Positions 229 through 52,489 of a DNA stretch of 64,000 nucleotides are shown in pieces. Every line of letters begins with the position of its first letter. Within the stretch, counting starts at the first letter, position 1. Source of the stretch: Candidatus Levyibacteriota bacterium (GTDB lineage Bacteria > Patescibacteriota > Microgenomatia > Levybacterales > UBA12049); assembly GCA_016186645.1 (NCBI GenBank), contig JACPLF010000006.1, positions 124,808 through 188,807 on the forward strand, written 5' to 3'. The notes beneath the pieces are model-generated. The model did no database searches. It was not told where the DNA came from and saw nothing but the letters and a program-made list of their open reading frames with translations. The translations under genes and the position numbers were made by a program.

Positions 229-1338
229 ATGAGAGTGGCGTTGGTTTATGATAGGGTGAATAAGTGGGGAGGGGCGGAGAGAGTTTTGTTGGCGCTTCAT
301 AAGCTGTTTCCCGATGCACCTCTTTATACTTCGGTTTACGACAAGAAAAAAACCCCATGGGCGAGCGTATTTAATGTAAGAACTTCGTTTCTGCAAAGAT
401 TACCATTTGCCATGAACCATGAACTATTTGCTGTCCTAATGCCTTTGGTATTTGAGAGTTTTGATTTTGATGAATATGATTTGGTAATTTCTGTGACATC
501 GGAGGCGGCAAAAGGAATTATTACCAAACCCAAAACAAAACACATTTGTTATTGTCTAACGCCAACGCGTTATCTTTGGAGCGGATATGATGAATATTTC
601 AAGAATCCTGTTTTAAGACTTTTATCAAAACCTGTTGTTTGGTATTTAAAATTTTGGGACAAAATCGCAGCACAACGTCCAGATGCATATATTGCAATTT
701 CAAAAGAAGTGCAGGGGAGGATTAAAAAATATTATGGAAGAGAATCAACTGTCGTGTATCCGCCAGTAGAAGCGTTCAGTTTGTTAGCGTCTAGCGTTCA
801 GTTGGGAAATAAAAAACTAGACGCTGACTTACTAGACGCTGAACGCTCGTATTTTTTAATAGTGTCACGTTTGGTGCCATACAAGAAAATAGATTTGGCG
901 ATAAAAGCTTTTAACGAATTGAAGTTGCCATTGAAAATAATTGGGACGGGTTCGGAAACGGGAAGCCTTAAGAGAATAGCAAAATCAAATATTGAGTTTT
1001 TGGGTAACTTGACGGATAAAGAGCTAGTAGGGTATTATAGAGCCTGTCGCGCTCTGGTTTTTCCAGGCATTGAAGACTTTGGATTAACTATATTGGAAGC
1101 CCAAAGTTTTGGCAAACCTGTCATAGCTTTTAGAGCAGGCGGATCGCTTGAGACAATCATTGAAGGAAAAACCGGAATATTTTTTAATGAGCCAAATATT
1201 GAAAGTTTAACCAAAGCAATAAAGCAATTTAACAATATGAAATTTGATCCAAAAGATTGCATAGAACAGGCCAGTAAGTTTAGTTTTGAAATGTTTAAAA
1301 AACAATTTATGAGTGCTATTAACAATATAGCAATTTAA
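229..1338 (+). CDS. glycosyltransferase, GT-B fold, family 4-like
   Basis: C-terminal GT4 signature FPGIEDFGLTILEAQSFGKPVIAFRAGGSLETIIEGKTGIFF (E-x7-E-like region), 369 aa. Confidence 0.75.
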   Translation: MRVALVYDRVNKWGGAERVLLALHKLFPDAPLYTSVYDKKKTPWASVFNVRTSFLQRLPFAMNHELFAVLMPLVFESFDFDEYDLVISVTSEAAKGIITKPKTKHICYCLTPTRYLWSGYDEYFKNPVLRLLSKPVVWYLKFWDKIAAQRPDAYIAISKEVQGRIKKYYGRESTVVYPPVEAFSLLASSVQLGNKKLDADLLDAERSYFLIVSRLVPYKKIDLAIKAFNELKLPLKIIGTGSETGSLKRIAKSNIEFLGNLTDKELVGYYRACRALVFPGIEDFGLTILEAQSFGKPVIAFRAGGSLETIIEGKTGIFFNEPNIESLTKAIKQFNNMKFDPKDCIEQASKFSFEMFKKQFMSAINNIAI

Positions 1339-1352
1339 CAATATAGCAATTT

Positions 1353-2417
1353 ATGTCTATGAAGATTATTATTTTTGCAGGCGGAGTAGGAACAAGACTT
1401 TGGCCTTTATCTCGAAAAAACAGCCCAAAGCAATTTGAAAAAATATTGGGGGATAAATCTACATTACAACTCGCAGTTGAGCGTCTGCGTCCTGATTTTG
1501 AGTTTTCCGATATTCATATTGCAACTGGTAAAAGATACGAAAAAATAATAAGGGAACAACTTCCTCAAATCCCAGCTGACAATTTTATTTTTGAACCCTC
1601 AGTTAGAGACGTAGGTCCTGCTGTTGGTATGGCGGTATCAATTATCGGAAAAGGTCATCCCAATACACCTGTTGCAATTTTGTGGAGCGACCATTTTGTT
1701 AAGAAAGAAAGACGTTTTCGTGAAGTTTTACATTTCGCGGAAGACCTAGTCAAAAAAAATAACAACTCACTTATTCTAATTGGACAAAGAGCAAGATTTG
1801 CAAATCAGAATTTGGGATGGATAGAATTTGGTGAGGAGACAGCTGAGATTAGAGGGACAAAAATTTTCAAATTCAAGAAATTGATTTACAGACCAACACT
1901 CGAACAGGCAGAGAGTTTTCTAAATCAAAATTTTGCCTGGAATCCGGGATATTTCGTCACAACACCAAAATTTTTATTGTCTCAATTCGAGAAATTTACC
2001 CCGGACTTGTATAGAGGTATTGTAAAAATAAAAGACGATAAGAGCTTGAATAGAATATATCCGACACTTGAAAAAATAAGTTTTGATAATGCAATTTTGG
2101 AAAAAATAGATCCTAAATATGTATCTGTTATTGCCGCAGATTTGGGCTGGAGCGATGTCGGAGCATGGGAAGCATTGAAAGAAGCTTTAGAGAAAGCATC
2201 AACGGAAAATGTTACCAAAGGCAAGGTCCTTATGACTGATGCTACCGACAACTTAGTTTTTAATTATACTGACCAATTGGTGGTAGGTATAGATTTAGGA
2301 AAAATGATTGTAATAAATACAGATGACGTTTTGCTTATCTGCCACAAAAATTCCGTTCCTAAAATAAAAAAACTCGTTGAAAAATTAGAAAATACGCCGC
2401 ACGAACATCTCACGTAA
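1353..2417 (+). CDS. mannose-1-phosphate guanylyltransferase-like sugar-phosphate nucleotidyltransferase
   Basis: N-terminus IIFAGGVGTRLWPLSRKNSPKQF matches the GDP-mannose pyrophosphorylase G-loop consensus. 354 aa. Confidence 0.7.
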   Translation: MSMKIIIFAGGVGTRLWPLSRKNSPKQFEKILGDKSTLQLAVERLRPDFEFSDIHIATGKRYEKIIREQLPQIPADNFIFEPSVRDVGPAVGMAVSIIGKGHPNTPVAILWSDHFVKKERRFREVLHFAEDLVKKNNNSLILIGQRARFANQNLGWIEFGEETAEIRGTKIFKFKKLIYRPTLEQAESFLNQNFAWNPGYFVTTPKFLLSQFEKFTPDLYRGIVKIKDDKSLNRIYPTLEKISFDNAILEKIDPKYVSVIAADLGWSDVGAWEALKEALEKASTENVTKGKVLMTDATDNLVFNYTDQLVVGIDLGKMIVINTDDVLLICHKNSVPKIKKLVEKLENTPHEHLT

Positions 2418-3136: not shown

Positions 3137-3379
3137 ATGGATGTGAATAAAAGAGAAAGTGAACAGCCAAAACAAGCTCCAACCGAAGCTTCAAGAGGAT
3201 TTTTGACGCGTTTTTTTGCGAGTGATTTGGCTATAGCCACTGTCGGTTCAGGGACACTTTTACTTTTGACAGGCATAAATTTTGCACGAGGGGACATCGC
3301 GACAGCCCAAGTCGGTAGTTTTGGGTTAGGTCTTATGGCAGTCGCTAAGATTTTGTCAGAAAGACGAAAGCAAGATTAA
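3137..3379 (+). CDS. small hypothetical protein with a hydrophobic segment
   Basis: 80-aa ORF with a near-consensus promoter directly upstream. No known motif. Confidence 0.3.
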   Translation: MDVNKRESEQPKQAPTEASRGFLTRFFASDLAIATVGSGTLLLLTGINFARGDIATAQVGSFGLGLMAVAKILSERRKQD

Positions 3380-3741
3380 TGAACAACCATAATATTTTAT
3401 TAAAAATACTTGAAATAATTGGGTACAGCGACGATAAAGACGCTTTTGTAGATGAGTTTTTGAAAAATGTTCAAATGCAGTCAGTTATTGACTTAATCCA
3501 GTCATTGCCCCAAGATAAACAATCAGAAATTAAAGAAAAACTTGCCCAAATTCAAAATGACCAGAATAAAGCTTCAGATTTACTCAAAGCCTATTTTACA
3601 GAGGAACAAATACAAGAAGCTCTGAAAAATTCTTCAAAAAAAGCAATGGAAGAATATATCAAAGCTATAAACCCAACCCTATCTTCAGCCCAAAAAAATA
3701 ATTTAATTACGTTCTCCCAACAGATCAACCCCTCAGCCTAA
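3379..3741 (+). CDS. hypothetical protein
   Basis: 120-aa ORF, start overlaps the previous stop (translational coupling). No motif recognised. Confidence 0.35.
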   Translation: MNNHNILLKILEIIGYSDDKDAFVDEFLKNVQMQSVIDLIQSLPQDKQSEIKEKLAQIQNDQNKASDLLKAYFTEEQIQEALKNSSKKAMEEYIKAINPTLSSAQKNNLITFSQQINPSA

Positions 3742-9708: not shown

Positions 9709-9797
9709 CGTTTAATATCTAAATCCAAGTTTCAATAACTACATCTTGCGTATTCTACTTTGCAGAACACTATTTTATCGTTTTAGTATCTTGACAA

Positions 9798-9851
9798 GTG
9801 GGAAAAAGTGGCTCAAAATGATAATAAGTGGGACAAAGTGGGAAAAGGTGG
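9798..9851 (+). promoter_or_regulatory. putative MraZ operator array: five (A)AGTGG(G) repeats on a 10-bp period overlapping the mraZ promoter
   Basis: GTGGG/GTGGC/GGTGG at 9798, 9808, 9828, 9838 and 9848, with TTGACA at 9791-9796. MraZ is known to bind direct TGGG-type repeats upstream of its own gene. Confidence 0.5.
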
Positions 9852-10395: not shown

Positions 10396-11246
10396 CAGAC
10401 TTTCACATAAGCGTACTTTTACAAGAAGCAATAGCCGGACTAAAAGTTGAAAAAAATAAGAAGTATATTGACGCGACGCTTGGTGGAGGAGGACACGCGA
10501 GGGAGATTTTAAGATTGGGGGGAGGAGTTTTGGGGATAGATGTGGATCAAGAAGCGATTGATTATGTTCGAGAAAATCTCAAATCTCAAATCTCAAATCT
10601 CAAATTGGTACGGGGGAATTTTAGAGACATAGACAGAATTGCACGTTTAAATAATTTTGAGGAAGTGGCTGGAATAATTTTTGACCTTGGTGTTTCCAGT
10701 CATCAAATAGATGCACCCGAAAGGGGATTTAGCTTCCAGAATGAGGGCCCGCTGGATATGCGAATGGATCAGGAGTTGGGGGTAAGGGCCCTAGACTTAA
10801 TAAAAATTTTAACAAAGGACGAACTGAATGAAATATTTAATAAATTTGGTGAAGAAAGCCGTTCTTGGCAAATATCTGAAGCTATTGTCAGCGCCCGTAG
10901 CGTGAAAGAGATTAAAACGACAAGAGAATTGGCAAAAATAGTTTTTAAAACAGCCGGAGAAAGCAAGAAAATCTTTCAGGCATTGAGGATTGTAGTAAAT
11001 GACGAATTGAATTCGATTATGGACGCTCTTCCTAAGGCATTAGGTCTTTTGGAGCCAAAAGGAAGATTAGCCATAATCTCATTTCACTCTCTGGAAGATA
11101 GAATTATAAAAAAGCACTTTTTAGAATTTGAGAGAAAAAATATGGGAAGAATTATTACACAAAAACCAATTGTTCCAAGTGATGCGGAAATTGCGCTAAA
11201 TAAAAGAGCAAGAAGCGCCAAGTTAAGAATTTTTGAGAGAAATTAG
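10392..11246 (+). CDS. rsmH: 16S rRNA (cytosine1402-N4)-methyltransferase RsmH (MraW)
   Basis: HISVLLQEAIAGL...YIDATLGGGGHA motif and position after mraZ. Contains an in-frame heptamer tandem repeat at 10575-10606. Confidence 0.85.
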   Translation: MTDFHISVLLQEAIAGLKVEKNKKYIDATLGGGGHAREILRLGGGVLGIDVDQEAIDYVRENLKSQISNLKLVRGNFRDIDRIARLNNFEEVAGIIFDLGVSSHQIDAPERGFSFQNEGPLDMRMDQELGVRALDLIKILTKDELNEIFNKFGEESRSWQISEAIVSARSVKEIKTTRELAKIVFKTAGESKKIFQALRIVVNDELNSIMDALPKALGLLEPKGRLAIISFHSLEDRIIKKHFLEFERKNMGRIITQKPIVPSDAEIALNKRARSAKLRIFERN

Positions 11247-13290: not shown

Positions 13291-14502
13291 ATGTGGCAAG
13301 ATATTAAAAATATTTATCATTTGGGAATTGCTGTGCTGGCAAATATTTTTTACGGGTTTTCTTCTCAGAAAATTAAAGTTATTGGAGTGACGGGTACGGA
13401 CGGAAAAACAACCACGGCAAGCCTCATTTATCACATTTTAAATACTGCAGGCTTTAAAACATCTATGGTGACTTCGGTTGGCGCAGTCATTAGCGGGAAA
13501 AAGTACGATGTAGGTTTTCATGTTACTACTCCTTCATCTTTTGCGATACAAAAGTTTTTCAAAAAGGCTTTGGATACGGGATCGAAATTTCTTGTCTTGG
13601 AGACTACTTCCCATGCTTTGGATCAATTCAGGGTATTCGGCATTAGTTATGAAGTCGGAGTTCTGACAAATGTTACTCATGAGCATTTGGACTATCACAA
13701 AACTTATGAGAATTACGTCAAAACCAAAGCCAAACTTCTTGAAATGAGCAAAATTGCAATTGTTAACAGAGACGACTCTTCCTACAAACTAATTTTTAAT
13801 TTCAAATTTCTAATTTCTAAGTTGGTGACGTATGGAATGGGAAAAAATAGCAACATTAATCCCAAAACGTTTCCGTTTGAAACAAGCATGATTGGCGAGT
13901 TTAATGTTTATAATTCGCTTGCAGCAATTGCAGTTTGTATGCAGCTTGGAATAAAAAATGAAGATATCAGAAAGGGGATTGAAAGCTTTGTGATGCCGCT
14001 TGGAAGAGAAGACATAATCTTTAAAAAGGATTTTACTGTTATGATTGATTTTGCGCATACTCCAAATGCTTTTGAGCAAATTCTTAAATCAATCAAGCCG
14101 GAAGTAAAAGGTAGATTAATTCATGTTTTTGGCAGTGCCGGAGCAAGGGACGCAACCAAAAGACCATTGATGGGAAAAATGTCCTCAAAATACGCAGATA
14201 TTATTGTCTTAACAGCGGAAGACCCAAGATCAGAAAAAATTGAGAAGATTAATAGTGAGATTAAATCTGGAATTCCCCACTTCGCTAAAGCTTCGTGGGG
14301 CAAGCAGAATTCAGTTCAGCTTGTTGAGATTCCTGATAGGAAGGAAGCGATTAAAACCGCGATTGATATGGCAAAAAAAGGAGATTTCGTTATTATAACA
14401 GGCAAATCTCACGAAAAATCTATGAATTACGGACACGGCGAGGTCGCATGGGACGAATATAAAGCAGTAAAAGCTGCTTTAGAATTAAGATTTAAGAATT
14501 AA
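13291..14502 (+). CDS. murE: Mur ligase, most likely UDP-MurNAc-L-Ala-D-Glu:diamino-acid ligase MurE (short form)
   Basis: P-loop GVTGTDGKTTT, HLDYH and DFAHTP motifs, and EDPR in place of the DNPR motif. Position after ftsI supports MurE. 403 aa. Confidence 0.6.
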   Translation: MWQDIKNIYHLGIAVLANIFYGFSSQKIKVIGVTGTDGKTTTASLIYHILNTAGFKTSMVTSVGAVISGKKYDVGFHVTTPSSFAIQKFFKKALDTGSKFLVLETTSHALDQFRVFGISYEVGVLTNVTHEHLDYHKTYENYVKTKAKLLEMSKIAIVNRDDSSYKLIFNFKFLISKLVTYGMGKNSNINPKTFPFETSMIGEFNVYNSLAAIAVCMQLGIKNEDIRKGIESFVMPLGREDIIFKKDFTVMIDFAHTPNAFEQILKSIKPEVKGRLIHVFGSAGARDATKRPLMGKMSSKYADIIVLTAEDPRSEKIEKINSEIKSGIPHFAKASWGKQNSVQLVEIPDRKEAIKTAIDMAKKGDFVIITGKSHEKSMNYGHGEVAWDEYKAVKAALELRFKN

Positions 14503-14513
14503 GATTTAAGAAT
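14481..14513. repeat. 33-bp direct repeat copy 1 spanning the murE stop codon (AGAATTAAGATTTAAGAATTAAGATTTAAGAAT)
   Basis: Near-identical (32/33) to 15852-15884. Encodes the ...ELRFKN* C-terminus. Confidence 0.6.
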
Positions 14514-15873
14514 GAAAAAGATACGCTCAATCCACTTCGTAGGAATTAAGGGTGTTGGAATGACTCCTCTGGCAATTATTGCCAAAGAAGCAGGAATGAG
14601 CGTTTCCGGTTCGGACATCGCAGAAGAATTTATCACTTCACAGCTTTTAAAAAAAGCAGGAATTGTTCCTTTTGTTGGTTTTTCAAAAGAAAATGTTAAG
14701 AATCCGGATTTAGTTATAACAACCGGAGCGCATGGCGGATTCAACAATGTTGAAGTTTTGGAGGCAAAGAAGAAAAACATAAAAGTTATAACTCAAGGCG
14801 AGGCGGTTGGGATTTTCATGAAAGGAGAAATCTTTGGAAGAAGGTTAATCGGAATTTCTGTAACAGGCACACATGGAAAGACCACTACAACAGCAATGAT
14901 TGCTACAATGCTTAAAGACTGCGGGCTTGATCCGTCTTTTGTAATTGGGACTGGAAATATTTTGTCTTTGGGATCATCAGGCCATTTTGGGAAAGGGAAA
15001 TATTTTATAGCTGAAGCAGATGAGTACATGACAGAACCCAACTTTGACAGAACGATAAAGCACATGTGGCAGCATCCAAAAATTGCCGTAATTACAAATA
15101 TTGAATTTGATCATCCGGACGCATATAAATCTTTGGATGATACTCGGGAAAAATTTCTTGAATTTGCCAATCAGTTGCCAGTTCAGGGGGTTTTAATTAT
15201 ATGCGGAGATGATCCTCAAGTTAAGAAACTTCTTTCCGAGTTTAAGAGTAGGAAAATAACCTACGGATTTGATAAGAATAATGATTTTGTCGTCGACGAA
15301 GTTTTGAAAGGTATTAAGTTATCTGTTTTTGGAGATCACAATAGACTAAATGCTACTGCAGCTTTCATAGTAGGTATTGAAGTAGGTCTTGAAAAAGAAA
15401 ACATTAGAGAAGGCTTAATTGCATTTAAGGGGTCGAAAAGGCGGTCTGAATTGGTAGGTAGGCTTGAATCCGGAGCTTTAGTTTACGATGATTATGCTCA
15501 TCATCCCACAGAAATTAAAAGAACTTTGCAGGCTTTCAGAGAAAACTTTCCAAACTCAAAAATAGTCTGTATTTTCCAACCCCATACATATTCTCGAACC
15601 AAATCATTGTTCGAACAATTTAGTAGCTCTTTTGATGACGTTGATACTGTTGTTTTAACTAAAATATTTTCTTCCGCGAGAGAAAAAGTTGATCCCACAG
15701 TTTCAATGCCTGATTTAGCTACAAAAATTGGCAAAAAAGCCTTATTTTTGCCTAATCTTTCTGATGTGGTAAAATACCTAAACAATCAAGATTTTGGTGA
15801 GGGGACTATTGTGATTACTATGGGAGCCGGAGATGTCTACAAGATTAGCAAAGAATTAAGATTTAAGAATTAA
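14512..15873 (+). CDS. murC: UDP-N-acetylmuramate--L-alanine ligase MurC
   Basis: N-terminal IHFVGIKGVGMTPLAIIAKEAGMSVSGSD and P-loop GTHGKTTTTAMIA. Confidence 0.8.
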   Translation: MKKIRSIHFVGIKGVGMTPLAIIAKEAGMSVSGSDIAEEFITSQLLKKAGIVPFVGFSKENVKNPDLVITTGAHGGFNNVEVLEAKKKNIKVITQGEAVGIFMKGEIFGRRLIGISVTGTHGKTTTTAMIATMLKDCGLDPSFVIGTGNILSLGSSGHFGKGKYFIAEADEYMTEPNFDRTIKHMWQHPKIAVITNIEFDHPDAYKSLDDTREKFLEFANQLPVQGVLIICGDDPQVKKLLSEFKSRKITYGFDKNNDFVVDEVLKGIKLSVFGDHNRLNATAAFIVGIEVGLEKENIREGLIAFKGSKRRSELVGRLESGALVYDDYAHHPTEIKRTLQAFRENFPNSKIVCIFQPHTYSRTKSLFEQFSSSFDDVDTVVLTKIFSSAREKVDPTVSMPDLATKIGKKALFLPNLSDVVKYLNNQDFGEGTIVITMGAGDVYKISKELRFKN

Positions 15874-15884
15874 GATTTAATAAT
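15852..15884. repeat. 33-bp direct repeat copy 2 spanning the murC stop codon
   Basis: AGAATTAAGATTTAAGAATTAAGATTTAATAAT. MurC therefore also ends ...ELRFKN*. Confidence 0.6.
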
Positions 15885-15885
15885 T

Positions 15886-17223
15886 ATGGAGAAAATTGTT
15901 ATAAAAGGCGGAAAAAGATTAACAGGCAGTATTTTTGTATCCGGAGCCAAAAATGTGGCTTTGAAAGCCATGGTGGCTGCATGTTTGACAGATGAGAAAG
16001 TGACAATAAAAAATATTCCTTTAATTTCTGATTTTATGGTTATGGTTGCAATAATAAAGGAATTAGGAGGAAAGGTTAAGGTCGTTGATCATATTGTCCA
16101 TATTCACATGAAGAAATTCAAGAAAGAAAAAATTTCCTTGGAAGAAGCAGGCAAAATACGAACATCTGTTATGTTTCTAGCCCCGCTTTTGGCCAGAATG
16201 GGAAAAGCAATTATTCCTAACCCCGGAGGATGCAGAATCGGAGCAAGGCCAATAGACAGAACCGTAGAAGGTCTTGAGAAAATGGGCTATTCAGCTTCAT
16301 ACAAAAGTAAAGACGGATTTTTCTATTTGCATAGCAAAAGTGAGCCTGCAAAAAAAGAGATTGTTTATAAATTTGAAAAAAGCACTCATACCGGCACTGA
16401 GACTCTTATTATGGTTGCATGTCTTTTAAATGGTACAAAAATAACTTTGGAAAATGCTGCTGCAGAGCCTGAAATAGATGAGTTAATAAATCTTCTTAAT
16501 CAGATGGGTGCTAAAATTTTAAGAACCAAAGAGAGAACAATAGTTATACAGGGTGTTGAGAAATTGAAGGGAACAGAATTTACCATAGATTCAGACAGAA
16601 ATGAAATTGTTACCCTTGCTGTTGCGGCTATTGTTACAAAAGGAGATATTCTAGTGAAAGGGGTGCAAAATGTTGACCTATCTCCCTTTATTCAAAGACT
16701 TGAGCTAGCCGGTGGAGGAGTAGAGCAAAAAAAAGAAGGAATCAGGTTTTTTTATAAAGGAGAATTAAATAAAGTTGATGTTGAGACCTCAATTTATCCC
16801 GGTTTTATGACGGATTGGCAAGGACCTTGGGCGATACTTATGACTCAGGCAAAGGGAGAGTCAATAATTCATGAAACAGTTTATGAAAATAGATTCGGAT
16901 ATGTTAAAGAGCTTGGAAAAATGGGAGCGGATATAGCTCTTTTTAATCCTGAAATAAAAAATCCTGAAAAAGTTTACAATTTTAATCTGTCCGACAACGA
17001 TGATTCCTATTTCCATGCAATAAAAGTAAAAGGCCCAACAAAATTACATAACGGCGTTGTTGAGATTTCAGATTTGAGAGCGGGGGCAACTTTGGTTTTG
17101 GCCGCTTTATCAGCAGCAGGAGAAAGTGTAATATTCGGCGTTGAACATTTGGATCGGGGATATGAAAAATTAGAGGCAGGATTGGGAAGTCTGGGTGCTA
17201 ATATAAAAAGAATTCAGGAATAA
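15886..17223 (+). CDS. murA: UDP-N-acetylglucosamine 1-carboxyvinyltransferase MurA
   Basis: MEKIVIKGGKRLTGSIFVSGAKNVALKAMVAACL is a canonical MurA N-terminus. 445 aa. Confidence 0.85.
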   Translation: MEKIVIKGGKRLTGSIFVSGAKNVALKAMVAACLTDEKVTIKNIPLISDFMVMVAIIKELGGKVKVVDHIVHIHMKKFKKEKISLEEAGKIRTSVMFLAPLLARMGKAIIPNPGGCRIGARPIDRTVEGLEKMGYSASYKSKDGFFYLHSKSEPAKKEIVYKFEKSTHTGTETLIMVACLLNGTKITLENAAAEPEIDELINLLNQMGAKILRTKERTIVIQGVEKLKGTEFTIDSDRNEIVTLAVAAIVTKGDILVKGVQNVDLSPFIQRLELAGGGVEQKKEGIRFFYKGELNKVDVETSIYPGFMTDWQGPWAILMTQAKGESIIHETVYENRFGYVKELGKMGADIALFNPEIKNPEKVYNFNLSDNDDSYFHAIKVKGPTKLHNGVVEISDLRAGATLVLAALSAAGESVIFGVEHLDRGYEKLEAGLGSLGANIKRIQE

Positions 17224-17229
17224 TTTTCT

Positions 17230-17970
17230 ATGAAAAAAATTGCAGCAATTATTCTGGCAGCGGGTAAAGGAAAAAGAATGAAATCAAAATATATAAATAA
17301 AGTTGTTGTTTCCTTGGGCGATAAGCATATGATTCTTCACGCAGTCGATAGATTAAAAGGGCTTTTGATTAACCCTATAATTGTGGTTGTAGGTTTTGCA
17401 AAAGAATCTGTGATGAAAGTTCTGGATGGAAAAGTAATCTTTGCAGAGCAAGCAAAAAGATTAGGTACTGCTCATGCTGTAATGTGCGGCTTGAAAAAAG
17501 TACCACAGGATGTAGATGCGGTTTTGGTTCTCAATGGAGATGATTCGGCTTTTTATACGAGCGAAATAATTGAAAAACTCATAAAAACCCATCAGGATTC
17601 AAGTGCGGCATTATCTTTTTTGACAATAACAGTTGATAATCCTTCGGGACTTGGAAGAGTAGTTAGAGATAATAATGGCAAAATAATGGGAATTGTTGAA
17701 GAAAAAGATGCAACCGAAAAGCAAAGAGGAATTAGCGAAATTAATCCGGCGTGCTATACTTTTAATATCTCATTTTTGAAAAAATATTTAGATAAAATTA
17801 AGAAAAGTGATGTTACCGGAGAATATTATCTAACGTCCCTTATAGATGCTGCAATTAAAAACAACGAAAAGGTGGAATCGGTTCCCTGTGGAAAGATTTT
17901 ATGGCGGGGAATAAATACGCCGGAAGAATTAAAAGAAGCGGAAAGATTATTTTTAACTTTTAAAAATTAA
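17230..17970 (+). CDS. sugar-phosphate nucleotidyltransferase resembling the GlmU N-terminal (uridyltransferase) domain only
   Basis: AAIILAAGKGKRMKS G-loop. 246 aa with no left-handed beta-helix acetyltransferase domain. Confidence 0.6.
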   Translation: MKKIAAIILAAGKGKRMKSKYINKVVVSLGDKHMILHAVDRLKGLLINPIIVVVGFAKESVMKVLDGKVIFAEQAKRLGTAHAVMCGLKKVPQDVDAVLVLNGDDSAFYTSEIIEKLIKTHQDSSAALSFLTITVDNPSGLGRVVRDNNGKIMGIVEEKDATEKQRGISEINPACYTFNISFLKKYLDKIKKSDVTGEYYLTSLIDAAIKNNEKVESVPCGKILWRGINTPEELKEAERLFLTFKN

Positions 17971-17971
17971 T

Positions 17972-18403
17972 ATGGAAATTACAATAGAACAGATCAAAAC
18001 TTTTTCTTCTGATTTAACACCGGCTTTAAATAGTCTATTAAAACAGCTAAATGAAGAAGCAGAAGCTCTTGATGATAAAGACGTTATGGGAATAATTGAG
18101 TCTTCACCTAATCGCTTGTTTGTTGCAAGAAGCGGTAGAGAAATAATCGGCATGCTGACTTTAATAGTATTTCGTAGCGCTTTTGCAAAAAAAGGACTGC
18201 TTGAGGACATTGTTGTTGATAGTAAATATCGGGGAAAGGGAGTTGGTACAAAAATAATTTTGGCTGCAATTGATGAGGCTCGCCGTGAAGGAGTGACTCA
18301 TCTTGATTTTACTTCCAGTCCTCAGCGGGAGGATGCAAATAGACTCTATCAGCATATGGGATTTGAGAAGCGAGACACCAACGTATACAGAATAAAATTA
18401 TAA
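17972..18403 (+). CDS. GNAT family N-acetyltransferase (candidate glucosamine-6-P N-acetyltransferase)
   Basis: GNAT motif A region VDSKYRGKGVGTKIILAAIDEARREG. 143 aa, the size of GNA1-type enzymes. Start overlaps the upstream stop. Confidence 0.65.
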   Translation: MEITIEQIKTFSSDLTPALNSLLKQLNEEAEALDDKDVMGIIESSPNRLFVARSGREIIGMLTLIVFRSAFAKKGLLEDIVVDSKYRGKGVGTKIILAAIDEARREGVTHLDFTSSPQREDANRLYQHMGFEKRDTNVYRIKL

Positions 18404-18880
18404 ATGGACAAAAATAAAGTTGTACTTTTTGATATAGACTACACTCTCTTTGACACAGCTTTTTTTAAAGAAAGTAAGCTTTTAAAACATAAAATCTATG
18501 AAGAGGTAATTGATGTTTTGGATGGTCTGAGTAAAATTGCAATTCTCGGAGTTTATTCGGAGGGAGATATTGATTTTCAAGTAAATAAAATTAAGGAAAC
18601 AAATATAGATAGGTATTTTGCCAAAGAAAATACGCATGTCGTTTTAGATAAGCTTTCGGATTTAAAAATAATATTTGAAAAATACAAAAATAAAAAAACT
18701 TTTCTTGTTGATGATAAGTTGCATATTTTACATAATGTAGAACAATTATTTCCTGACGTTTTTACCATTTGGGTAAAAAGAGGACCATTTGCGCAGAGCC
18801 AAACAGAAATTGCAGGATTCAAGCCCGATGCAGAAATCACGAACTTGGGAGAAGTTAAGAGTTTGATACTTAATACATAA
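18404..18880 (+). CDS. HAD-superfamily hydrolase-like protein
   Basis: N-terminal DxDxT motif (VVLFDIDYTLFDT). 158 aa. Confidence 0.5.
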   Translation: MDKNKVVLFDIDYTLFDTAFFKESKLLKHKIYEEVIDVLDGLSKIAILGVYSEGDIDFQVNKIKETNIDRYFAKENTHVVLDKLSDLKIIFEKYKNKKTFLVDDKLHILHNVEQLFPDVFTIWVKRGPFAQSQTEIAGFKPDAEITNLGEVKSLILNT

Positions 18881-18889
18881 TACTTTCGT

Positions 18890-20695
18890 ATGTGTGGAAT
18901 ATATGGTTACGTAGGCCATAAATCAGAAGCGGCAAATACTGTCCTTGATGGATTAAAACTTCTTGAATATAGAGGTTATGATTCTTGGGGAGTGGCAGCG
19001 AAGATTAAAGATGAAAGATTAGAGATGAAGGGTGGATTCCTTACGGAAAAACATGTTGGGAAGATAGGGGATAGCCATTTAAACTTTCAACTCTCAACTT
19101 TCAACTCTCATCTGGCAATAGGGCATACTCGCTGGGCGACTCATGGAGGAGTTACGGTTGCAAATGCTCATCCTCATACAGATTGCAAGGCTCAAATTGC
19201 AGTTGTTCACAATGGCATTGTAGAAAATTTCCAAGAATTAAAAACTTATCTTTTAAAAAAAGGCCACAAATTTATTTCGGAAACGGATACAGAAGTTATT
19301 CCCCATTTGATCGAGGAGAATCTTAAGCGAGAAGGTTTTGCTTCATCTGTGCGAGACGCATTTAATGCCCTAAGAGGCCTGAATGCTATTGTTGCTGTAA
19401 ATGCAGGATCTAGTGAAATTGTTGTTGCGAAAAATGGCTCACCTTTGATTATTGGTATTGGAGATCAGGAATTTTTTGTTTCTTCAGACGTTATTGGAAT
19501 TGTAGAACACACAAAAAAAGTAATTTTCCTCAAAGATCTAGAAATGGTTATTTTAGGGAATCCGCCAGCTGGCGGAATTCAGCTCCTATCACTTCCTGAG
19601 GGAAATAAATTAGAAATAAAACCCGAGCAAATTACCTGGAGTTATGAAATATCTACAAAAGGAAAATTTGACGATTTCATGATAAAAGAAATTCATGAGC
19701 AACCCAATGTAGTTAGAAATATTGCAGGAAATTATACAAGTCAAATTGAGAAACTAGCTAAAGAAATTCAAAATTCAAAAGGAACTTTTTTCATTGGGGC
19801 AGGAACTGCATATCATGCAGGATTTTCCGGAAATTATCTTTTCTCAAAGATTGCTAAAATCCACGTCAACACATCTGTCGCATCTGAGTTTAATTATTTG
19901 GAAGATTTTTTAACTAGGGACAGTCTTATTATTGCTTTGTCTCAAAGTGGAGAGACTATTGATGTTGTTGAGCCTTTGAATCGTGCAAAGAAAAAAGGAA
20001 GTAAAATTTTTGCAATAACAAATACTTTGGGCTCTACAATTTATAGAATGGCAGACTATAACATGCTCCTTAACGCCGGACCTGAAAAAGCAGTTGCGTC
20101 AACAAAAGCATATATCGCCAAAGTAAGCGTTATCCTTATGTTGGCATATGTTTTAATAGGGAAAACAAATGAAGCAAAAAATATTCTTCTCAAAACTGCA
20201 GATGAAATAGAAAGACTTCTTTCAGAGACAACGGTTGACGATATTAAAAAAATAGCCAAGGCTCTTTCTGTCTCAAAAAATGTTTATGCAATTGGGAGAG
20301 GGGTGTCCTATCCTTCTGCTCTTGAGGCAGCGCTCAAAATTAAAGAAGTAACATATATTCCTACAGAAGGACTTGCGGGAGGAGAGTTAAAGCATGGAAC
20401 GATTGCATTAATTAGCAAGGGAGTGCCCTGTATTGTATTTGCGCCAATGGACGAGACTTATGAATCAGTAATTTCAAATGCGATTGAAATTAAATCAAGA
20501 GGCGGAGTAATTATCGGTATTAGTCCGAAAAAAGCGGAAGTTTTTGACCATTTTGTAGAAGTGAAAGATGTGGATTCGGGATCCTACATAGCCCAAGTTG
20601 TGGTTGCTCAGCTTCTCGCTTATTACATGGCAATTGACTTGAAGTTGGATGCAGACAAGCCCCGCAACCTCGCCAAATCCGTTACAGTAAAGTAG
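18890..20695 (+). CDS. glmS: glutamine--fructose-6-phosphate aminotransferase GlmS
   Basis: MCGIYGY N-terminal nucleophile and two SIS domains. C-terminal ...AKSVTVK is near-canonical. Confidence 0.9.
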   Translation: MCGIYGYVGHKSEAANTVLDGLKLLEYRGYDSWGVAAKIKDERLEMKGGFLTEKHVGKIGDSHLNFQLSTFNSHLAIGHTRWATHGGVTVANAHPHTDCKAQIAVVHNGIVENFQELKTYLLKKGHKFISETDTEVIPHLIEENLKREGFASSVRDAFNALRGLNAIVAVNAGSSEIVVAKNGSPLIIGIGDQEFFVSSDVIGIVEHTKKVIFLKDLEMVILGNPPAGGIQLLSLPEGNKLEIKPEQITWSYEISTKGKFDDFMIKEIHEQPNVVRNIAGNYTSQIEKLAKEIQNSKGTFFIGAGTAYHAGFSGNYLFSKIAKIHVNTSVASEFNYLEDFLTRDSLIIALSQSGETIDVVEPLNRAKKKGSKIFAITNTLGSTIYRMADYNMLLNAGPEKAVASTKAYIAKVSVILMLAYVLIGKTNEAKNILLKTADEIERLLSETTVDDIKKIAKALSVSKNVYAIGRGVSYPSALEAALKIKEVTYIPTEGLAGGELKHGTIALISKGVPCIVFAPMDETYESVISNAIEIKSRGGVIIGISPKKAEVFDHFVEVKDVDSGSYIAQVVVAQLLAYYMAIDLKLDADKPRNLAKSVTVK

Positions 20696-20752: not shown

Positions 20753-21736
20753 ATGAAGATTCCGCCGGTATATACGATTTCATGTAAAATGCTGTCGCTT
20801 ATCACCAAAATTGAGGCAGAAAGATTGCATTTTTCCTCTTTAAGTCTTCCTGAAGAGCTGAAAGAAAATATACAAAGAATAAGTCTTCTGAAAAGTTCCC
20901 TTTTTTCTGCTCGTATTGAAGGAAATCCGCTTAATGTCTCTGATTTTGAATATGGGGCAGAAGCGGAAGAAGAAAAGAAGAAAGAGATATTTAATATTCT
21001 TAAGGCAATAAATTTTATAGATAAAAATACAAAAAAGGGCATTACGAAAGATTTAATTTTACATTTACATGTCTTGGCTTTGAAGAATATCTCATCGAAT
21101 GGCGGTAATTTTCGAAATGAAGTAAGCGCGATTTTTAATCAGGCGGGAGTTGCTGTTTATATGCCGCCACCGCCATCCATGATCTCGAAATCGTTAAACG
21201 AACTCTTAATTTACATAAATTCAAAGACAGAAAAATTTCCTCTTATCACTTCTTTCACCGCGCATCTAATTTTCGAAAAAATTCATCCTTTTTTAGATGG
21301 AAATGGCAGAGTCGGCAGGCTTCTAATTTCGGCGATTCTAAAATCAAAAGGTTGGGATTTTACCTTTACGGTACCTTTTGAAGAATATCTTGAGGAACAT
21401 AAAGACGAATATTATTTTCATTTAAGTAGCGGATTGAAGAATGCCAATGATTATCTTGAATTTATGCTTGACGCATTCTACAAACAAATACAAAAAATAA
21501 AAGATCAGATTGATCAGGAAATTGCCAAAGAATCGCATCCATTCCTTCCGCCCCGTCAGGAAGAAATACTTAATATCATTAAAGATCAGATCGTTGTGTC
21601 TTTTGATATGATAAGAAGGCGATTCCTTCGGGTACCGCAAAGGACACTCCGCTGGGATCTAAAAAAACTTCTTGATAGAAGACTTATTGAAAAAAGCGGT
21701 GCAACAAGAGGAAGATATTACAGGATAAGAAAATAG
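20753..21736 (+). CDS. Fic family protein (class II, with N-terminal inhibitory motif)
   Basis: Fic motif HPFLDGNGRVGRLL. Upstream SARIEGN matches the [S/T]xxxE[G/N] auto-inhibition motif. Confidence 0.8.
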   Translation: MKIPPVYTISCKMLSLITKIEAERLHFSSLSLPEELKENIQRISLLKSSLFSARIEGNPLNVSDFEYGAEAEEEKKKEIFNILKAINFIDKNTKKGITKDLILHLHVLALKNISSNGGNFRNEVSAIFNQAGVAVYMPPPPSMISKSLNELLIYINSKTEKFPLITSFTAHLIFEKIHPFLDGNGRVGRLLISAILKSKGWDFTFTVPFEEYLEEHKDEYYFHLSSGLKNANDYLEFMLDAFYKQIQKIKDQIDQEIAKESHPFLPPRQEEILNIIKDQIVVSFDMIRRRFLRVPQRTLRWDLKKLLDRRLIEKSGATRGRYYRIRK

Positions 21737-21781
21737 ATTTTTTTCTTGACAAAATAAAAATTCTATATTATTATTCGGCTT

Positions 21782-22021
21782 ATGGGGCGTCATAAAGAAA
21801 GATTACCTAAATCACCTGATCCAGCTGTTTCTACAAAAACCGTTACGAGACATGGTAAGCGTGTGGAAGTAACAAGTGTAGATCTTAGCAGGGTTACTGG
21901 TTCTTCTGAGCCTAATATAGGAGACGAAGAGCGCATACAAAGAGTGCTGGAAGAAATACGGGACGCAGAACGAACCCCATTCCATGTTCGCGGAAGACAC
22001 TCGAGGCGCGGGGAGAGATAA
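21782..22021 (+). CDS. small basic hypothetical protein (weak)
   Basis: 79-aa ORF preceded by TTGACA. Overlaps an antisense ORF. Coding status uncertain. Confidence 0.25.
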   Translation: MGRHKERLPKSPDPAVSTKTVTRHGKRVEVTSVDLSRVTGSSEPNIGDEERIQRVLEEIRDAERTPFHVRGRHSRRGER

Positions 22022-23091: not shown

Positions 23092-24156
23092 ATGAAAAAA
23101 ATAGATATTTCCCTACTTTTTAGCGTAATTCTTCTGACTCTCTTTGGACTTTTCATGATTTTTGATGCATCAAGTTTTGTTGCGTTTAGGGATTTTGGGG
23201 ATAAATACCATTATGTAAAAGACCAATTTGGTTGGGTAGCACTGGGTTTTGTCGGATTAACTCTTTTCTCATATTTTGATTATCGCAAATTATATTCACT
23301 TGCTCTCCCCATTCTTTGTACGGCTTTGGTTTTACTTATTTTGGTTTTTGTTCCCGGAATAGGAATCAATATTTTGGGAGCAAGCCGTTGGATCAATACA
23401 GGACTAGTCACTATTCAGCCTGCAGAATTTGTAAAATTAGCATTGGCTATTTATCTGGCTGCATGGTTTTCAAACAAAGAAAAAGGAAGGCTTTTGGCAT
23501 TTTTGCTTTTGATGGGATTGGTCTTGGGGTTAGTAATGCTTGAGCCGGACATGGGCACTACAACTGTAATACTAAGTGAAGCTTTTGTGATTTATTTTTT
23601 GTCAGGAGCACGAATTATTTATTTTTCTCTAATAGTTCCTGTTGTGGCAATGTTGGGATTTTTATTTATAAAAATGTCTCCATACAGAGCGAAAAGACTT
23701 GAAGCATTTCTAAATATTGGCGATTCTATTGAGTCTTCTTCTTATCATGTCAAGCAAATTTTAATTGCGCTTGGCGCAGGAGGGTTAACCGGAGTGGGCC
23801 TTGGAAATTCTATACAAAAATATGCTTATCTTCCCGAAAGCACAACAGATTCGATTTTCGCAATTATCGCAGAGGAGTTAGGATTTATTGGCGCAACTGG
23901 ACTAATTATATTTTTTATTTTTATTTTTTCTCGATGTTTTTATATAGCTGTCAATGCAAAGGATAATTTTGGTAAACTTTTGGGGGCAGGAGTGACAACC
24001 TTTTTGGCAGTGCAAACAATTATAAATTTGGCAGCTCAAACAGCGCTGGTTCCTTTGACAGGAATACCTTTGCCCTTTATTTCTTATGGAGGATCTGCTC
24101 TAATTATTGATCTTGCTGCTGTGGGGATATTGTTGAATATCTCTAAAAATAGTTAA
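23092..24156 (+). CDS. ftsW: SEDS family peptidoglycan glycosyltransferase FtsW
   Basis: FtsW/RodA fold motifs (MLEPDMGT and DSIFAIIAEELGFIG). Located between mraY and murG. Confidence 0.8.
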   Translation: MKKIDISLLFSVILLTLFGLFMIFDASSFVAFRDFGDKYHYVKDQFGWVALGFVGLTLFSYFDYRKLYSLALPILCTALVLLILVFVPGIGINILGASRWINTGLVTIQPAEFVKLALAIYLAAWFSNKEKGRLLAFLLLMGLVLGLVMLEPDMGTTTVILSEAFVIYFLSGARIIYFSLIVPVVAMLGFLFIKMSPYRAKRLEAFLNIGDSIESSSYHVKQILIALGAGGLTGVGLGNSIQKYAYLPESTTDSIFAIIAEELGFIGATGLIIFFIFIFSRCFYIAVNAKDNFGKLLGAGVTTFLAVQTIINLAAQTALVPLTGIPLPFISYGGSALIIDLAAVGILLNISKNS

Positions 24157-24186
24157 AAATTCAAAATGCAAAATTCAAAATTACAA

Positions 24187-24219
24187 CGTAAAGTTGCGTG
24201 GCAACAACGTTGCTTTACG
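24187..24219 (+). repeat. GC-containing hairpin (CGTAAAG-TTGCGTG-GCAAC-AAC-GTTGC-TTTACG) flanked by 13-bp direct repeats AAAATTCAAAATT
   Basis: Inverted repeat seen directly. Flanking direct repeats lie at about 24158-24185 and 24224-24240. Confidence 0.45.
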
Positions 24220-24302
24220 CAATTTAAAATTCAAAATTTAGATTCTAAATTAAAAACTTTTAACTTTTCACTTTTAACTTTTAACTGGAGCGGAGGCGAC
24301 TT

Positions 24303-36949: not shown

Positions 36950-38062
36950 ATGTTAATAAAGCCTCAAACAACAAATTTCGCAAAGATTAGGGTCATGGGG
37001 ATTGGCGGAGGGGGAATGAATGCCCTTAACTCTATGATTACCTCAAGCGAAGTCAAGGGTGTAGATTTTATTTCAGTTAATACAGATGCGCAGGTTCTTC
37101 TTTTATCCAAAGCCCAAACAAAAATCCAAATAGGTGAAAATTTGACAAAAGGACTAGGAAGCGGGGGAAATCCGGATATAGGACGTCAGGCTGCAGAAGA
37201 ATCTTACGAAAAAATAAAGGAATTTATTGATGGATCGGACATGGTTTTTATAACTGCGGGTATGGGAGGCGGAACAGGAACCGGATCAAGTTCTGTTATT
37301 GCTAGAGCGGCAAAAGAAATCGGAGCTCTGACAGTTGCAGTCGTCACCAAGCCTTTCGCTTTTGAAGGAACCAGAAGAATGGTGGCAGCAGAAGATGGAA
37401 TAGAGGAGCTTCGGGAAAAAGTCGATACATTAATCGTTATTCCAAATCAGAGAATTTTGGATGTTGTTGATAAGAAAGTTTCTCTTCTTGAAGCTTTTAG
37501 AATTGCAGATTCCGTATTAACTCAAGGAGTACAGGGAATTTCGGATTTAATTACCATTCCGGGCCTAATCAATGTTGATTTTGCTGATGTAAAAGCAATT
37601 ATGAGTTCTGCTGGATCAGCTCTTATGGGAATTGGAACCGGATCTGGGGAAAATAGAGCACAAATTGCAGCAAGATCGGCAATCGCATCTCCTCTTTTGG
37701 AAATTTCTATGGATGGAGCGCGCGGAGTCTTGTTTAATATTACCGGAGGACCTGATTTGACAATGACAGAGGTTGATGACGCAGCCAAAATTATTTCAGC
37801 AGCAGCAGATCCGGATGCGAATATTATTTTCGGCGCCACAATTGATGAGGCAATGCATGACCAGATAAAAATTGCAGTTATCGCAACCGGATTTGATCAC
37901 ACCCGCCAAACTCTCAAAGAATTTGTAAAGCCAATTGTGAATATGGCACCCTTGAAGATTGAAGTTAAAGATAGCCAAGAGCCAACGCCACAGGAGCCTC
38001 CTCAGGAGGACAATAACGACGACGCCTGGGACATTCCCGCTTTTTTGAGGCAGAGGAATTAA
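36950..38062 (+). CDS. ftsZ: cell division protein FtsZ
   Basis: Tubulin signature GGGTGTG, N-terminal [14 protein letters not shown] and C-terminal conserved peptide [10 protein letters not shown]. Confidence 0.9.
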
Positions 38063-40491: not shown

Positions 40492-40522
40492 TGCCGCATT
40501 TTTAAGACAGAGGAATTAGAAG
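40492..40522. repeat. ftsZ 3'-end-like direct repeat copy Z3
   Basis: TGCCGCATTTTTAAGACAGAGGAATTAGAAG. Confidence 0.55.
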
Positions 40523-41127
40523 CCGAGCTTTTCTTTGACGAGGATTAAAGTTAATCTGTTTGGAGAAATTTCTTTATTTATTATTAAAAGCTTGCTTACA
40601 TTACTTTCAACTCCATAAATTTTTCTTAATCTTTTCGATTCAAGAGGCAAAACATATTCATAAATTCTCTTCAAACCTTCATCCAAATGTGCAACTATTT
40701 TTTGAGTACCGACAATCCAAATAACATGAGAAGCTGCATAAGCATATGCAGGCAATTGGCTTCCTGTATTTGAAGCAATTATTACTTTTCCATCTTCTGT
40801 CACAGCGTGTATGCTCCCAACAGCGTATTCTGGTGCAGTTCCGATCCTCTGCATTTCTCTGTCTTGAGTTGCCCGATACATTTTTGAAAGTTTATTCTTG
40901 ACAGAGTCATATTTGCCCGATTCATTTATCTCCTTGGGAAGGCCTAAAGTATCAATGGTAACAGAACTCATATTCATTACTTCAGCTCCCTGAGGTAATA
41001 ATTCTAACACTTTATTTTTCGCTTCAATTCCATTATCAACAACAAGCGCGTCAATCCCATTAGCTTTTAAATTTTCAATAGTTTTTGCGATTGATTCATC
41101 GTCGGCCAATTCACTCCAATTTTTCAT
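40516..41127 (-). CDS. LUD (lactate-utilisation, LutC/YkgG-like) domain protein
   Basis: VGSIHAVTEDGKVIIASNTGSQLPAYAYAASHVIWIVGTQKIV matches the LUD-domain core. 203 aa. Confidence 0.55.
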   Translation of the reverse strand: MKNWSELADDESIAKTIENLKANGIDALVVDNGIEAKNKVLELLPQGAEVMNMSSVTIDTLGLPKEINESGKYDSVKNKLSKMYRATQDREMQRIGTAPEYAVGSIHAVTEDGKVIIASNTGSQLPAYAYAASHVIWIVGTQKIVAHLDEGLKRIYEYVLPLESKRLRKIYGVESNVSKLLIINKEISPNRLTLILVKEKLGF

Positions 41128-47758: not shown

Positions 47759-47760
47759 CT

Positions 47761-51322: not shown

Positions 51323-52489
51323 TTGTTAAGCTCTAGTGCAAGTATGAAGGTGTCTTTTATAGCTACAGTTTATAACGAGGAAGCTTCTATTAAGGCGTTG
51401 TTGGATTCACTGATGAAGCAATCCCAAATGCCTGCTGAAATTATTATTTCTGATGGGGGAAGTACTGACCGTACGGTCGGTATAATTAAAGCTTACCCGG
51501 GAAAGATTAAGATAATTATAAAAAAAGGAAATAGGTCGGTGGGGAGAAATGAGGCGATTAGAAAAACGACTAACGAAATTATTGTTTGTTCTGATTCAGG
51601 TTGCATTCTTGACAAAAATTGGGTAAAAAATATAATCGAACCATTTTCTGATCCAAAAACGGATGTTGTTGCAGGATATTATGTTGGCAAACCGAATTCG
51701 GTTTTTGAAAAGTGTTTAATTCCCTATGTTTTGGTAATGCCGGATAAAATAGACGCCAATAGTTTTCTTCCTGCCAGCCGCTCTATGGCTTTTAGGAAAT
51801 CCACATGGAAAAATGCAGGAAAATTTCCTAAAGAATTTAACAACAATGAAGATTATGTTTTTGCTAAAAATTTGATGAAAATTAACGCAAAGATTGTGTT
51901 TGAAAAAAAGGCAATCGTTTACTGGAGGCCAAGAAGTAATATTAAGAATGCTTTTACAATGTTTTACCGCTTTGCAAAGGGAGATTCAGAATCTCGCATC
52001 TTTAGACCTAAAGTGATCCTAATATTTGCACGTTATATTGCTTTCCTTATTTTTACAGTTTCGTTTTTAATTTTTAAATCATACATAATACTTAATACTT
52101 TATACTTAATACTTGCTTTTTATATTCTTTGGTCAATAGCTAAAAATTATAAGTATGTAAAAGATGCTCGGGCAATAGTCTTTCTTCCTTTGATCCAATT
52201 CGTATCAGATACGGCAGTGATAGCGGGAACAGTAATAGGCTTACTAACTCAAAAATTAAAAATATTAATTGAAGGATTATTCTATATTACAATTGTATAT
52301 TCAATAATCTTATTAAATTTCAGACACTTAAGGTCTTTGTTTAGTCCGCCTAAAATTAATCAGAGTGAAATCGTAGGCTACGCCCAGTATTTTGGCTATC
52401 CCTTATATTTTGAAACAATAATTTTATTTATTTTTATATTTACTCCAATTCTAGTTTTTTTTGTTCTTAGCAAAATGAAAAAAATATAA
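51323..52489 (+). CDS. GT2 family glycosyltransferase with C-terminal TM segments (polyprenyl-phosphate sugar synthase-like)
   Basis: SFIATVYNEEASIKALLDSL, DGGSTD and DSG-type motifs, plus a C-terminal hydrophobic region. Confidence 0.6.
   Translation: MLSSSASMKVSFIATVYNEEASIKALLDSLMKQSQMPAEIIISDGGSTDRTVGIIKAYPGKIKIIIKKGNRSVGRNEAIRKTTNEIIVCSDSGCILDKNWVKNIIEPFSDPKTDVVAGYYVGKPNSVFEKCLIPYVLVMPDKIDANSFLPASRSMAFRKSTWKNAGKFPKEFNNNEDYVFAKNLMKINAKIVFEKKAIVYWRPRSNIKNAFTMFYRFAKGDSESRIFRPKVILIFARYIAFLIFTVSFLIFKSYIILNTLYLILAFYILWSIAKNYKYVKDARAIVFLPLIQFVSDTAVIAGTVIGLLTQKLKILIEGLFYITIVYSIILLNFRHLRSLFSPPKINQSEIVGYAQYFGYPLYFETIILFIFIFTPILVFFVLSKMKKI

Follow-up and report, generated by a model that had tools for sequence, protein, structure and literature searches.

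Heptamer arrays at the stop/start junctions flanking murC in a cell-wall operon of Candidatus Levybacteria

We examined a 64-kb stretch of DNA (64,000 nucleotides of contig JACPLF010000006.1; hereafter the window) from a Candidatus Levybacteria host, a bacterium belonging to the candidate phyla radiation (CPR; Microgenomates), in which two nearly identical 33-bp direct repeats flank the cell-wall gene murC. We are highly confident that these 33-mers are tandem arrays of 7-nt units built into the junctions between adjacent genes and are not the scar of an insertion. The reading that we prefer, with a probability of roughly 60% for the whole, is that slippage-prone heptamer arrays occupy both junctions and have become identical to each other through conversion. 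Taken alone, conversion as the cause of the identity is in our view slightly more likely than not. Junction heptamer architecture of this kind is already known from other units and other phyla, and we found no description of such arrays in Levybacteria or CPR bacteria in the searchable literature.

The first 33-mer, AGAATTAAGATTTAAGAATTAAGATTTAAGAAT, is located at 14481-14513 and the second, which carries one G-to-T change, at 15852-15884, at a distance of 1,371 bp. The 32/33 identity reported in an earlier reading of this DNA made from the letters alone (the sequence-only reading) was confirmed, and 100 dinucleotide shuffles of the window gave no match to the 33-mer. No further copy with three or fewer mismatches was found in the 64-kb window. 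The genes involved all lie on the forward strand and are murE (13291..14502; NCBIfam TIGR01085, 368 bits; 403 aa), murC (14512..15873; TIGR01082, 402 bits; 453 aa), and murA (15886..17223; TIGR01072, 425 bits), the start codon of which abuts the second array. MurE and MurC of the window each have a 100% identical counterpart among the proteins of a Candidatus Levybacteria metagenome-assembled genome. On this strand the murE/murC array reads tAGAATT AAGATTT AAGAATT AAGATTT AAGAATg and covers the last six codons of murE with its TAA, a 9-nt spacer between this stop and the next ATG, and the first two letters, A and T, of the murC start codon. The murC/murA array reads AAGAATT AAGATTT AAGAATT AAGATTT AATAATT, followed by ATG, and covers the last six codons of murC with its TAA plus the 12-nt spacer up to the murA ATG, which begins at 15886, 1 nt past the repeat. 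Tandem Repeats Finder (TRF) reported period 14 in 2.4 copies with 100% matches and period 7 in 4.7 copies with 84% matches for each 33-mer. The earlier description of a duplicated 14-mer was thus correct; more precisely, the 33-mer is a heptamer tandem array, (GAATTAA GATTTAA)x2, in which A and T alternate at unit position 3.

Each unit contains a TAA and seven is not a multiple of three, so that three units give a stop in every frame. Translated in its three forward frames, the array gives ELRFKN*, N*, and IKI*, reaching TAA within seven codons in each case, and the three reverse frames likewise meet TAA within seven codons. An upstream open reading frame (ORF) therefore ends after at most six array-encoded codons, whatever the copy number. 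As for phase variation, gain or loss of units should leave both ORFs intact, since every frame is stopped and the ATG lies at the 3' edge. The 3' ends of murE and murC are both GAA TTA AGA TTT AAG AAT TAA, and the two proteins share ELRFKN* because the two genes run into identical array sequence and in the same frame. The sequence-only reading was right that both proteins end in this way and that the identity arose at the level of DNA and not from independent constraint on the proteins. The MurE family profile stops at residues 397-399, which shows that the ELRFKN tail is array-encoded, and the MurC profile stops at residue 449, with an array-encoded tail beyond. MurE also lacks its usual N-terminal domain, the profile being aligned from position 71 on, and its relatives are equally long. 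Wider paralogous conversion of the murE and murC 3' ends was rejected, as similarity stops at the array edge.

To place these arrays in context, we scored tandem repeats of periods 4-13 with a windowed self-identity measure and compared the results with shuffles; the host was represented by the 64-kb window and its relatives by 82 kb of Levybacteria loci. The window contains 10 period-7 arrays where shuffles predict 0.03, and the other periods give 0-1. In the loci of Levybacteria relatives, 22 arrays are of period 7, and periods 4-6, 8, and 9 are unrepresented. Loci from diverse other bacteria (957 kb) have 7, and there periods 6, 9, and 12 dominate. The density in Levybacteria is about one heptamer array per 4-6 kb. 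Runs of at least three NNNTTAA units occur three times in the window (0.09 expected), at three consecutive operon junctions (murE/murC, murC/murA, and glmU-N/GNAT), ending 0-5 nt before the ATG. The third of these, TTTTTAA CTTTTAA AAATTAA at 17950..17970 on the forward strand, includes the stop codon of glmU-N, and 1 nt separates its end from the ATG that follows. Across the Levybacteria loci, all 11 such runs are at junctions, 2-16 nt 5' of a start codon. Heptamer arrays are thus a property of the whole clade.

Arrays at these two junctions recur in relatives, the loci of which are denoted here by L numbers. At murE/murC, L087 has the window array at 33/33 positions, L088 has GAAAATT AAGAATT AAGAATg, L108 has GGATTAAx3 followed by GGATG, L109 has GGATTGA GGATTAA AGATTAA GGATG, L086 has ATTAAAA ATCAAAA ATCAAAA ATGA, and L111 has TAGCAAT and TAACAAT units; L081 and L085 are array-free with an ATGA overlap. 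At murC/murA, GAATTAA is present three times in L110 and six times in L082, AAGTTAA three times in L109, and AAGTTAA/AAATTAA four times in L086, while L111 has GAGTTAA AATTTAA AAGTTAA, L085 a homologous array with a T-rich second unit, L108 a single unit, and L081 and L083 none. The number of units per site among relatives is 0, 1, 3, 4, or 6 at murC/murA and 0, 3, or 4 at murE/murC, and the unit is lineage-specific; a one-unit state is, for example, GAA AAATTAA AATT ATG. In relatives free of arrays, the genes overlap there, either by the classical ATGA or by 13 nt. The endings of the junctions are stable (..NNATG before murC and ..NNNTT ATG before murA), and the arrays are thus site-stable microsatellites with concerted evolution of their units. 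In the other genomes with arrays at both junctions, L086 and L109, the units differ between the two.

The same pattern is seen in the proteins. Tails of 120 MurC homologues are translated arrays (EKLKVKS, EELRIKN, ERLKMKD, ENLKFKN, KLKMQKSKL, and others), and so are many tails of 120 MurE homologues (EGLRIKD, EGLKIKN, ILKIKNQK, ALRMKD); over the 240 homologues together, most tails are array translations. In L082, three GAATTAA units translate exactly to ELRIKN*. A comparison of C-termini in relatives had been suggested by the sequence-only reading, and its outcome was one not foreseen there: tails such as EKLKVKS, EELRIKN, and EGLRIKD are similar as translations of related heptamer arrays. Gene callers misplace starts beside arrays, as in L082. 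The called murA start of this locus (~4512) is 36 nt 3' of the ATG that abuts the array, where MSRIIVNGG matches MEKIVIKGG, and its called murC start (~3136) is 47 nt inside murE.

Replication slippage on A/T-rich sequence is, we propose, the most likely origin of the junction arrays and of their changes in length. A change in copy number would leave the downstream ATG at the 3' edge untouched, and the arrays may be tolerated, perhaps even mildly useful, given that translation initiation in the window is essentially without Shine-Dalgarno (SD) sequences. Since the arrays of L086 and L109 differ between their two junctions, the identity of both junctions is specific to the lineage of the window. 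It was probably produced by ectopic gene conversion, or by template switching during replication, between two pre-existing similar arrays, the tract shared being the four internal units. Each copy retains its own junction-specific 3' end (GAATG as opposed to TAATTATG). Copying probably proceeded from murE/murC to murC/murA, because the independent contig L087, with a MurE 77% identical, has an identical murE/murC array, because MurE of the deep relative L002 terminates in RERFKN* on GGTTTAAGAATTAA and the murE end of L001 carries AAGAATT-type heptamers, and because the closest murC/murA arrays share the layout and not the sequence.

Several observations weigh against this proposal. The murE/murC arrays of the window and L087 are identical at 33/33 positions, and ungapped flanking 33-nt coding blocks match at only 19-29 of 33 (mean 76.5%); the contrast between array and flanks has P ~1.4e-4 if sites are equivalent. 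Such stability is unlike that of a neutral, slippage-prone microsatellite and hints at selection on the sequence or at transfer. The L087 contig ends 393 nt into murC, so this comparison covers the murE/murC junction only, and no near-identical full-length MurC for that lineage was present among the 120 best matches. In a rough, unbootstrapped neighbor-joining tree, the nearest MurE neighbors of the window and L087 are lineages without an array, and the history would therefore need several losses or two gains. Against the proposed direction of copying, the murC/murA arrays of the close relatives L111 and L085 also have a T-rich second unit. Lastly, the count of two copies rests on 64 kb of the host genome.

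Among the alternatives, the one that survives best, at odds that we put at about one in five, is that selection acts on the array as a cis-acting element of specific sequence, the same sequence having been selected at both junctions. It might be a platform for ribosomal protein S1 or a cold-shock protein, or a putative enhancer of (re)initiation for internal genes that lack an SD. Exact conservation in L087 despite flanks of ~76% identity is in keeping with this. So is the placement of arrays: three junctions in a row within one operon have an array ending 0-5 nt before the ATG, and across relatives all 11 sites precede a start. An identical role was put forward by MacGregor for TAACTGA repeats (PMC4679880). 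The 28-mer formed by the four internal units is present in exact form in 19 metagenome contigs, whose GC fractions are 0.30-0.64, always within longer GAATTAA/GATTTAA arrays; it lies directly after the stop of a co-oriented gene in ~12 of 17 unique loci and facing the start of a divergent gene in three, which favors such an element. However, (GAATTAA)x4 is a generic microsatellite that is also found in 23 viral contigs, and heptamer arrays occur inside ORFs and elsewhere in intergenic DNA as well. Moreover, units vary freely at the same junction and some lineages are array-free with overlapping genes (L081, L083, and L108 at murC/murA), which implies that no particular sequence is required.

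Analyses of RNA structure, promoters, and translation signals bear on what the arrays might do. The predicted RNA folds of the two arrays have minimum free energies of -0.9 and -1.2 kcal/mol with z near 0, and an RNA hairpin or processing site was rejected, as structure is no greater than in shuffles. The sequence-only reading had offered, as an alternative to recombination, that the 33-mer is a reused coupling or processing element; reuse at stop/start junctions stands and processing does not. A scan of the window against Rfam gave no family match for the arrays. An internal sigma-70 promoter in the array was also rejected, since promoter-like sites in the region are not enriched (48 vs 44.7). 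TAAGAT followed by 6 nt and ATG resembles the leaderless-type -10 spacing of the window, and hexamers of this sort are expected in any A/T-rich repeat. SD motifs are almost absent from the start-codon contexts of ~54 ORFs in the window, and the arrays are therefore no substitute for an SD. A TATAAT-like hexamer precedes the ATG by 6-8 nt in many genes (e.g., murE, mraY, and the ORFs that begin at 229, 34184, 38848, and 45277), which suggests, from sequence, that leaderless transcripts are widespread. The A/U-rich, unstructured spacer of 9-12 nt between stop and start is compatible with termination-reinitiation coupling.

A broader version of selection seems to us somewhat less probable still. 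Here NNNTTAA arrays would be a module, selected in Levybacteria and perhaps also in many other bacteria, that combines a universal stop with an SD-less restart, with the exact sequence read by a trans-acting RNA- or DNA-binding factor and copyable between junctions. If so, the pair flanking murC and the 33/33 match with L087 would reflect selection and spread in place of neutral slippage plus chance conversion.

We consider it improbable that the two arrays converged independently, each growing in situ out of a comparable A/T-rich seed, with slippage by 14 nt making the same A/T alternation twice. The repertoire of units is small and the 28-mer arose or spread in many unrelated contigs; AAGAATT is present at murE/murC in L088 and at murC/murA in L082 and L110, and a T-rich second unit is found at murC/murA in L111 and L085. 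Convergence demands, however, that the two unit variants, their order, and their number all agree between two sites (28/28 nt), and the arrays of L086 and L109 are clearly different at their two junctions.

The sequence-only reading had inferred that murC, possibly with the murA-to-fic block that follows, was moved into its position by recombination between the 33-bp repeats, which would then be scars. Direct repeats do bracket exactly one gene, and in division and cell wall (dcw) clusters of the E. coli type a murC after murE is non-canonical. The order murG-murC is found in other phyla; in our scan, this canonical order was seen only in bacteria outside the group. By contrast, murC lies between murE and murA in 12/12 related loci, contrary to a move of murC. 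The order ftsI-murE-murC-murA-glmU...glmS is common to every Levybacteria relative fetched, and murE-murC-murA-glmU...glmS is kept in L081, L082, L083/L084, L085, L086, L108, L109, L110, and L111, with MurC 69-81% identical. In L001/L002, where MurC identity is down to 56-57%, the order is ftsI-murE-(gap)-murC-murA-mraY-ftsW-murG. From these comparisons the position of murC after murE is ancient, and a 32/33-identical repeat cannot be the relic of so old a rearrangement. Arrays with unrelated units, or none, are present at the same junctions in relatives, so the repeats are not the signature of an insertion. NCBIfam named no integrase or transposase in the 20 neighboring ORFs, only cell-wall and division genes, GNAT, HAD, and Fic, and relatives compared for both proteins show concordant identities for MurC and MurE, for which reason we also rejected replacement of murC as a cassette via the arrays. 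Insertion by recombination, with or without the downstream block, is accordingly not supported and very improbable. Two loci have one extra gene, L083 between murE and murC and L111 between murC and murA. In L111 this gene (3162-3440) encodes a 92-aa GIY-YIG domain protein and starts at the ATG directly after a heptamer array, and murA follows it via a TGATG overlap.

An artefact of assembly or polishing, in which mis-mapped reads homogenized similar low-complexity arrays in the consensus of a metagenome-assembled genome, is just as improbable: the contig does come from a metagenome assembly and L081 and L085 show chimeric or mosaic contigs at the locus, but L087, assembled independently in another study (ENA ERZ1292646, Hain H14 groundwater), has an identical murE/murC array, arrays are present at both sites in many independent assemblies, and the two copies keep distinct 3' ends (GAATG vs TAATTATG). 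L081 and L085, themselves independent assemblies, are 100% identical over 2.7 kb, through murE into murC, and identity then falls stepwise to ~70% through murC and murA; the cause is either recombination between strains, giving a mosaic, or a chimeric contig.

Heptamer repeats are known from other bacteria. Heptameric simple sequence repeats (SSRs) are described as over-represented in bacteria, which is attributed to polymerase slippage (PMC4692102, citing Mrazek 2007), and tandem heptanucleotides as first reported in Calothrix (PMC4692102, citing Mazel 1990). GGGAATC/GGGGAYT repeats are present in Xanthomonas and Nostoc (PMC4692102). The arrays flanking murC resemble such SSRs, including the short tandemly repeated repetitive (STRR) sequences of cyanobacteria, in that period 7 is specifically enriched, in that they are mainly intergenic, and in that slippage is proposed as their origin. 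They consist of at least three head-to-tail 7-nt units of an over-represented period, and copy number and unit vary between relatives at the same locus. The known SSRs, by contrast, are G-rich or of other units, often have tens of copies, and are not specifically built into stop/start junctions. The Levybacteria arrays also differ from G-rich heptamer repeats in having no G-quadruplex potential.

The closest parallel is with the TAACTGA repeats of marine Beggiatoaceae and some Cyanobacteria and Bacteroidetes (MacGregor 2015, PMC4679880). Those repeats mostly end 1 nt before start codons, sometimes overlap upstream stops, have stops in all frames and no SD, and are occasionally found in ORFs (PMC4679880). 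Both kinds are tandem 7-nt units in 2-6 copies oriented toward a start codon and ending ~1 nt before it; in both, some overlap the upstream stop, the forward units stop all three frames and are so confined to ORF ends, an SD is usually absent between repeat and start, and a few arrays are tolerated within ORFs at the periphery of the protein. By contrast, the Levybacteria units are NNNTTAA/AAGAWTT and other families, making them the same kind of repeat and not members of the TAACTGA family. They vary between lineages at one site, whereas in BOGUAY related heptamers are rarely repeated, and their host is a CPR bacterium with a small genome in which arrays also lie inside conserved enzymes at conserved sites.

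Other systems are less similar. Translationally coupled junctions (ATGA, TAATG) likewise have stop and start within ~10 nt and no SD, but the junctions flanking murC are expanded by repeat units that add six codons to the upstream protein. Gene cassettes and transposon insertions share direct repeats that flank a single gene; here, by contrast, the repeats are 33 bp of tandem heptamers without recombinase or hairpin, and the gene is at the same place in all relatives. In place of the stable hairpin and dispersed copies of repetitive extragenic palindromic (REP) sequences, bacterial interspersed mosaic elements (BIMEs), and miniature inverted-repeat transposable elements (MITEs), we found unstructured arrays in only two copies in 64 kb.

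These comparisons remove a false lead, as the repeats do not mark a mobile murC. They point instead to a CPR lineage that is unusually rich in heptanucleotide microsatellites at conserved sites, where they build the stop/start junctions of a cell-wall operon, write the C-terminal tails of essential enzymes, and insert peptides into GlmS, RsmH, and MurE. Annotation of CPR genomes is affected through array-encoded tails and wrongly called starts (e.g., L082 murA). The arrays also bear on how proteins gain low-complexity segments, on why period 7 is favored in bacteria, and on whether arrays act in SD-independent translation.

Some of the 28-mer loci in other DNA have further structure. In L098, L100, L101, and L107, metagenome contigs with GC of 0.38-0.48, a GAATTAA/GATTTAA array is followed by a short spacer and then an inverted heptamer array (AAATCTT/AAATCGT-type), the pair forming a long A/T-rich inverted repeat 3' of a gene. 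Several different heptamer arrays (TAACTAA, AACTTTT) lie side by side in L092 and L094. The mixed 28-mer was absent from viral contigs, and a phage origin was rejected on this basis.

The remaining arrays of the window, all given on the forward strand, are of several kinds. A tandem 16-mer, TTAACAATATAGCAAT in 2.2 copies at 1319..1353, spans the stop of the ORF at 229-1338 and ends in an ATG at 1353; its architecture is that of the mur junctions, and its TAGCAAT/TAACAAT units are common with the murE/murC junction of L111. At the HAD/glmS junction, ATACTTA ATACATA ATACTT (18866..18885) ends 4 nt before the glmS ATG, and the same type of unit recurs in an apparently intergenic array at 52075..52117. 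The ftsW-murG intergenic region (24151..24288) has AAAATTC-type units at 24151-24186, a mixed tract at 24221-24256, and AACTTTT in 4.6 copies at 24253-24288. Within ORFs, rsmH has AAATCTC in 4.6 copies at 10574..10605, with no stop in any of three frames, and a different array-like peptide is present at this site in L083. An array of the CTAATTT type in murE (13789..13820) has a counterpart with a lineage-specific unit in every Levybacteria lineage examined. In glmS, two arrays (19001-19029 and 19078-19110) fall where the protein has insertions, of +7 aa and +4 aa, when compared with four orthologues.

The gene order of the window is mraZ, rsmH, ftsL-like, ftsI, murE, murC, murA, glmU-N, GNAT, HAD, glmS, fic, mraY, ftsW, murG, ftsA. 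Upstream of mraZ (9934), by ~80 nt, five AAGTGGG-type boxes with 10-nt spacing (9796-9851; TRF period 10/20) directly follow a TTGAC; we take them to resemble the operator of MraZ in the dcw promoter, which consists of GTGGG direct repeats. GlmU was compared between the window, L081, L086, L108, and L109 on one side and L083, L110, and L082 on the other. In the window (17230-18403) it consists of the uridyltransferase domain only (246 aa), and a GNAT acetyltransferase (143 aa) is encoded separately after it. In L083 and L110, GlmU is full-length and includes a hexapeptide-repeat domain, and L082 has a separate hexapeptide ORF. GNAT may be a non-orthologous replacement of the acetyltransferase half of GlmU. 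The interval between glmS and mraY (20753-22021) holds a Fic-domain gene and a 79-aa ORF in the window, mraY directly follows glmS in L083 (14206-14277), and a NUDIX gene follows glmS in L081 and L086. The downstream boundary of glmS is variable in these loci, unlike the murE-murC-murA core. In L082, a reverse transcriptase (RVT_1) and a bAvd gene (134-1534), the core of a diversity-generating retroelement, lie immediately 5' of murE. Elsewhere in the window, a 27-nt repeat, CCCGCTTTTTTGAGGCAGAGGAATTAA, occurs five times between 35425 and 40519 with 70-100% identity, two copies being at the ends of the ORFs 36950-38062 and 40516-41127(-). The sole Rfam match of the window is a tRNA at 47687-47758, which is overlapped by a mechanically called ORF with a GTG start (47701-48567), the 5' part of which is probably spurious.

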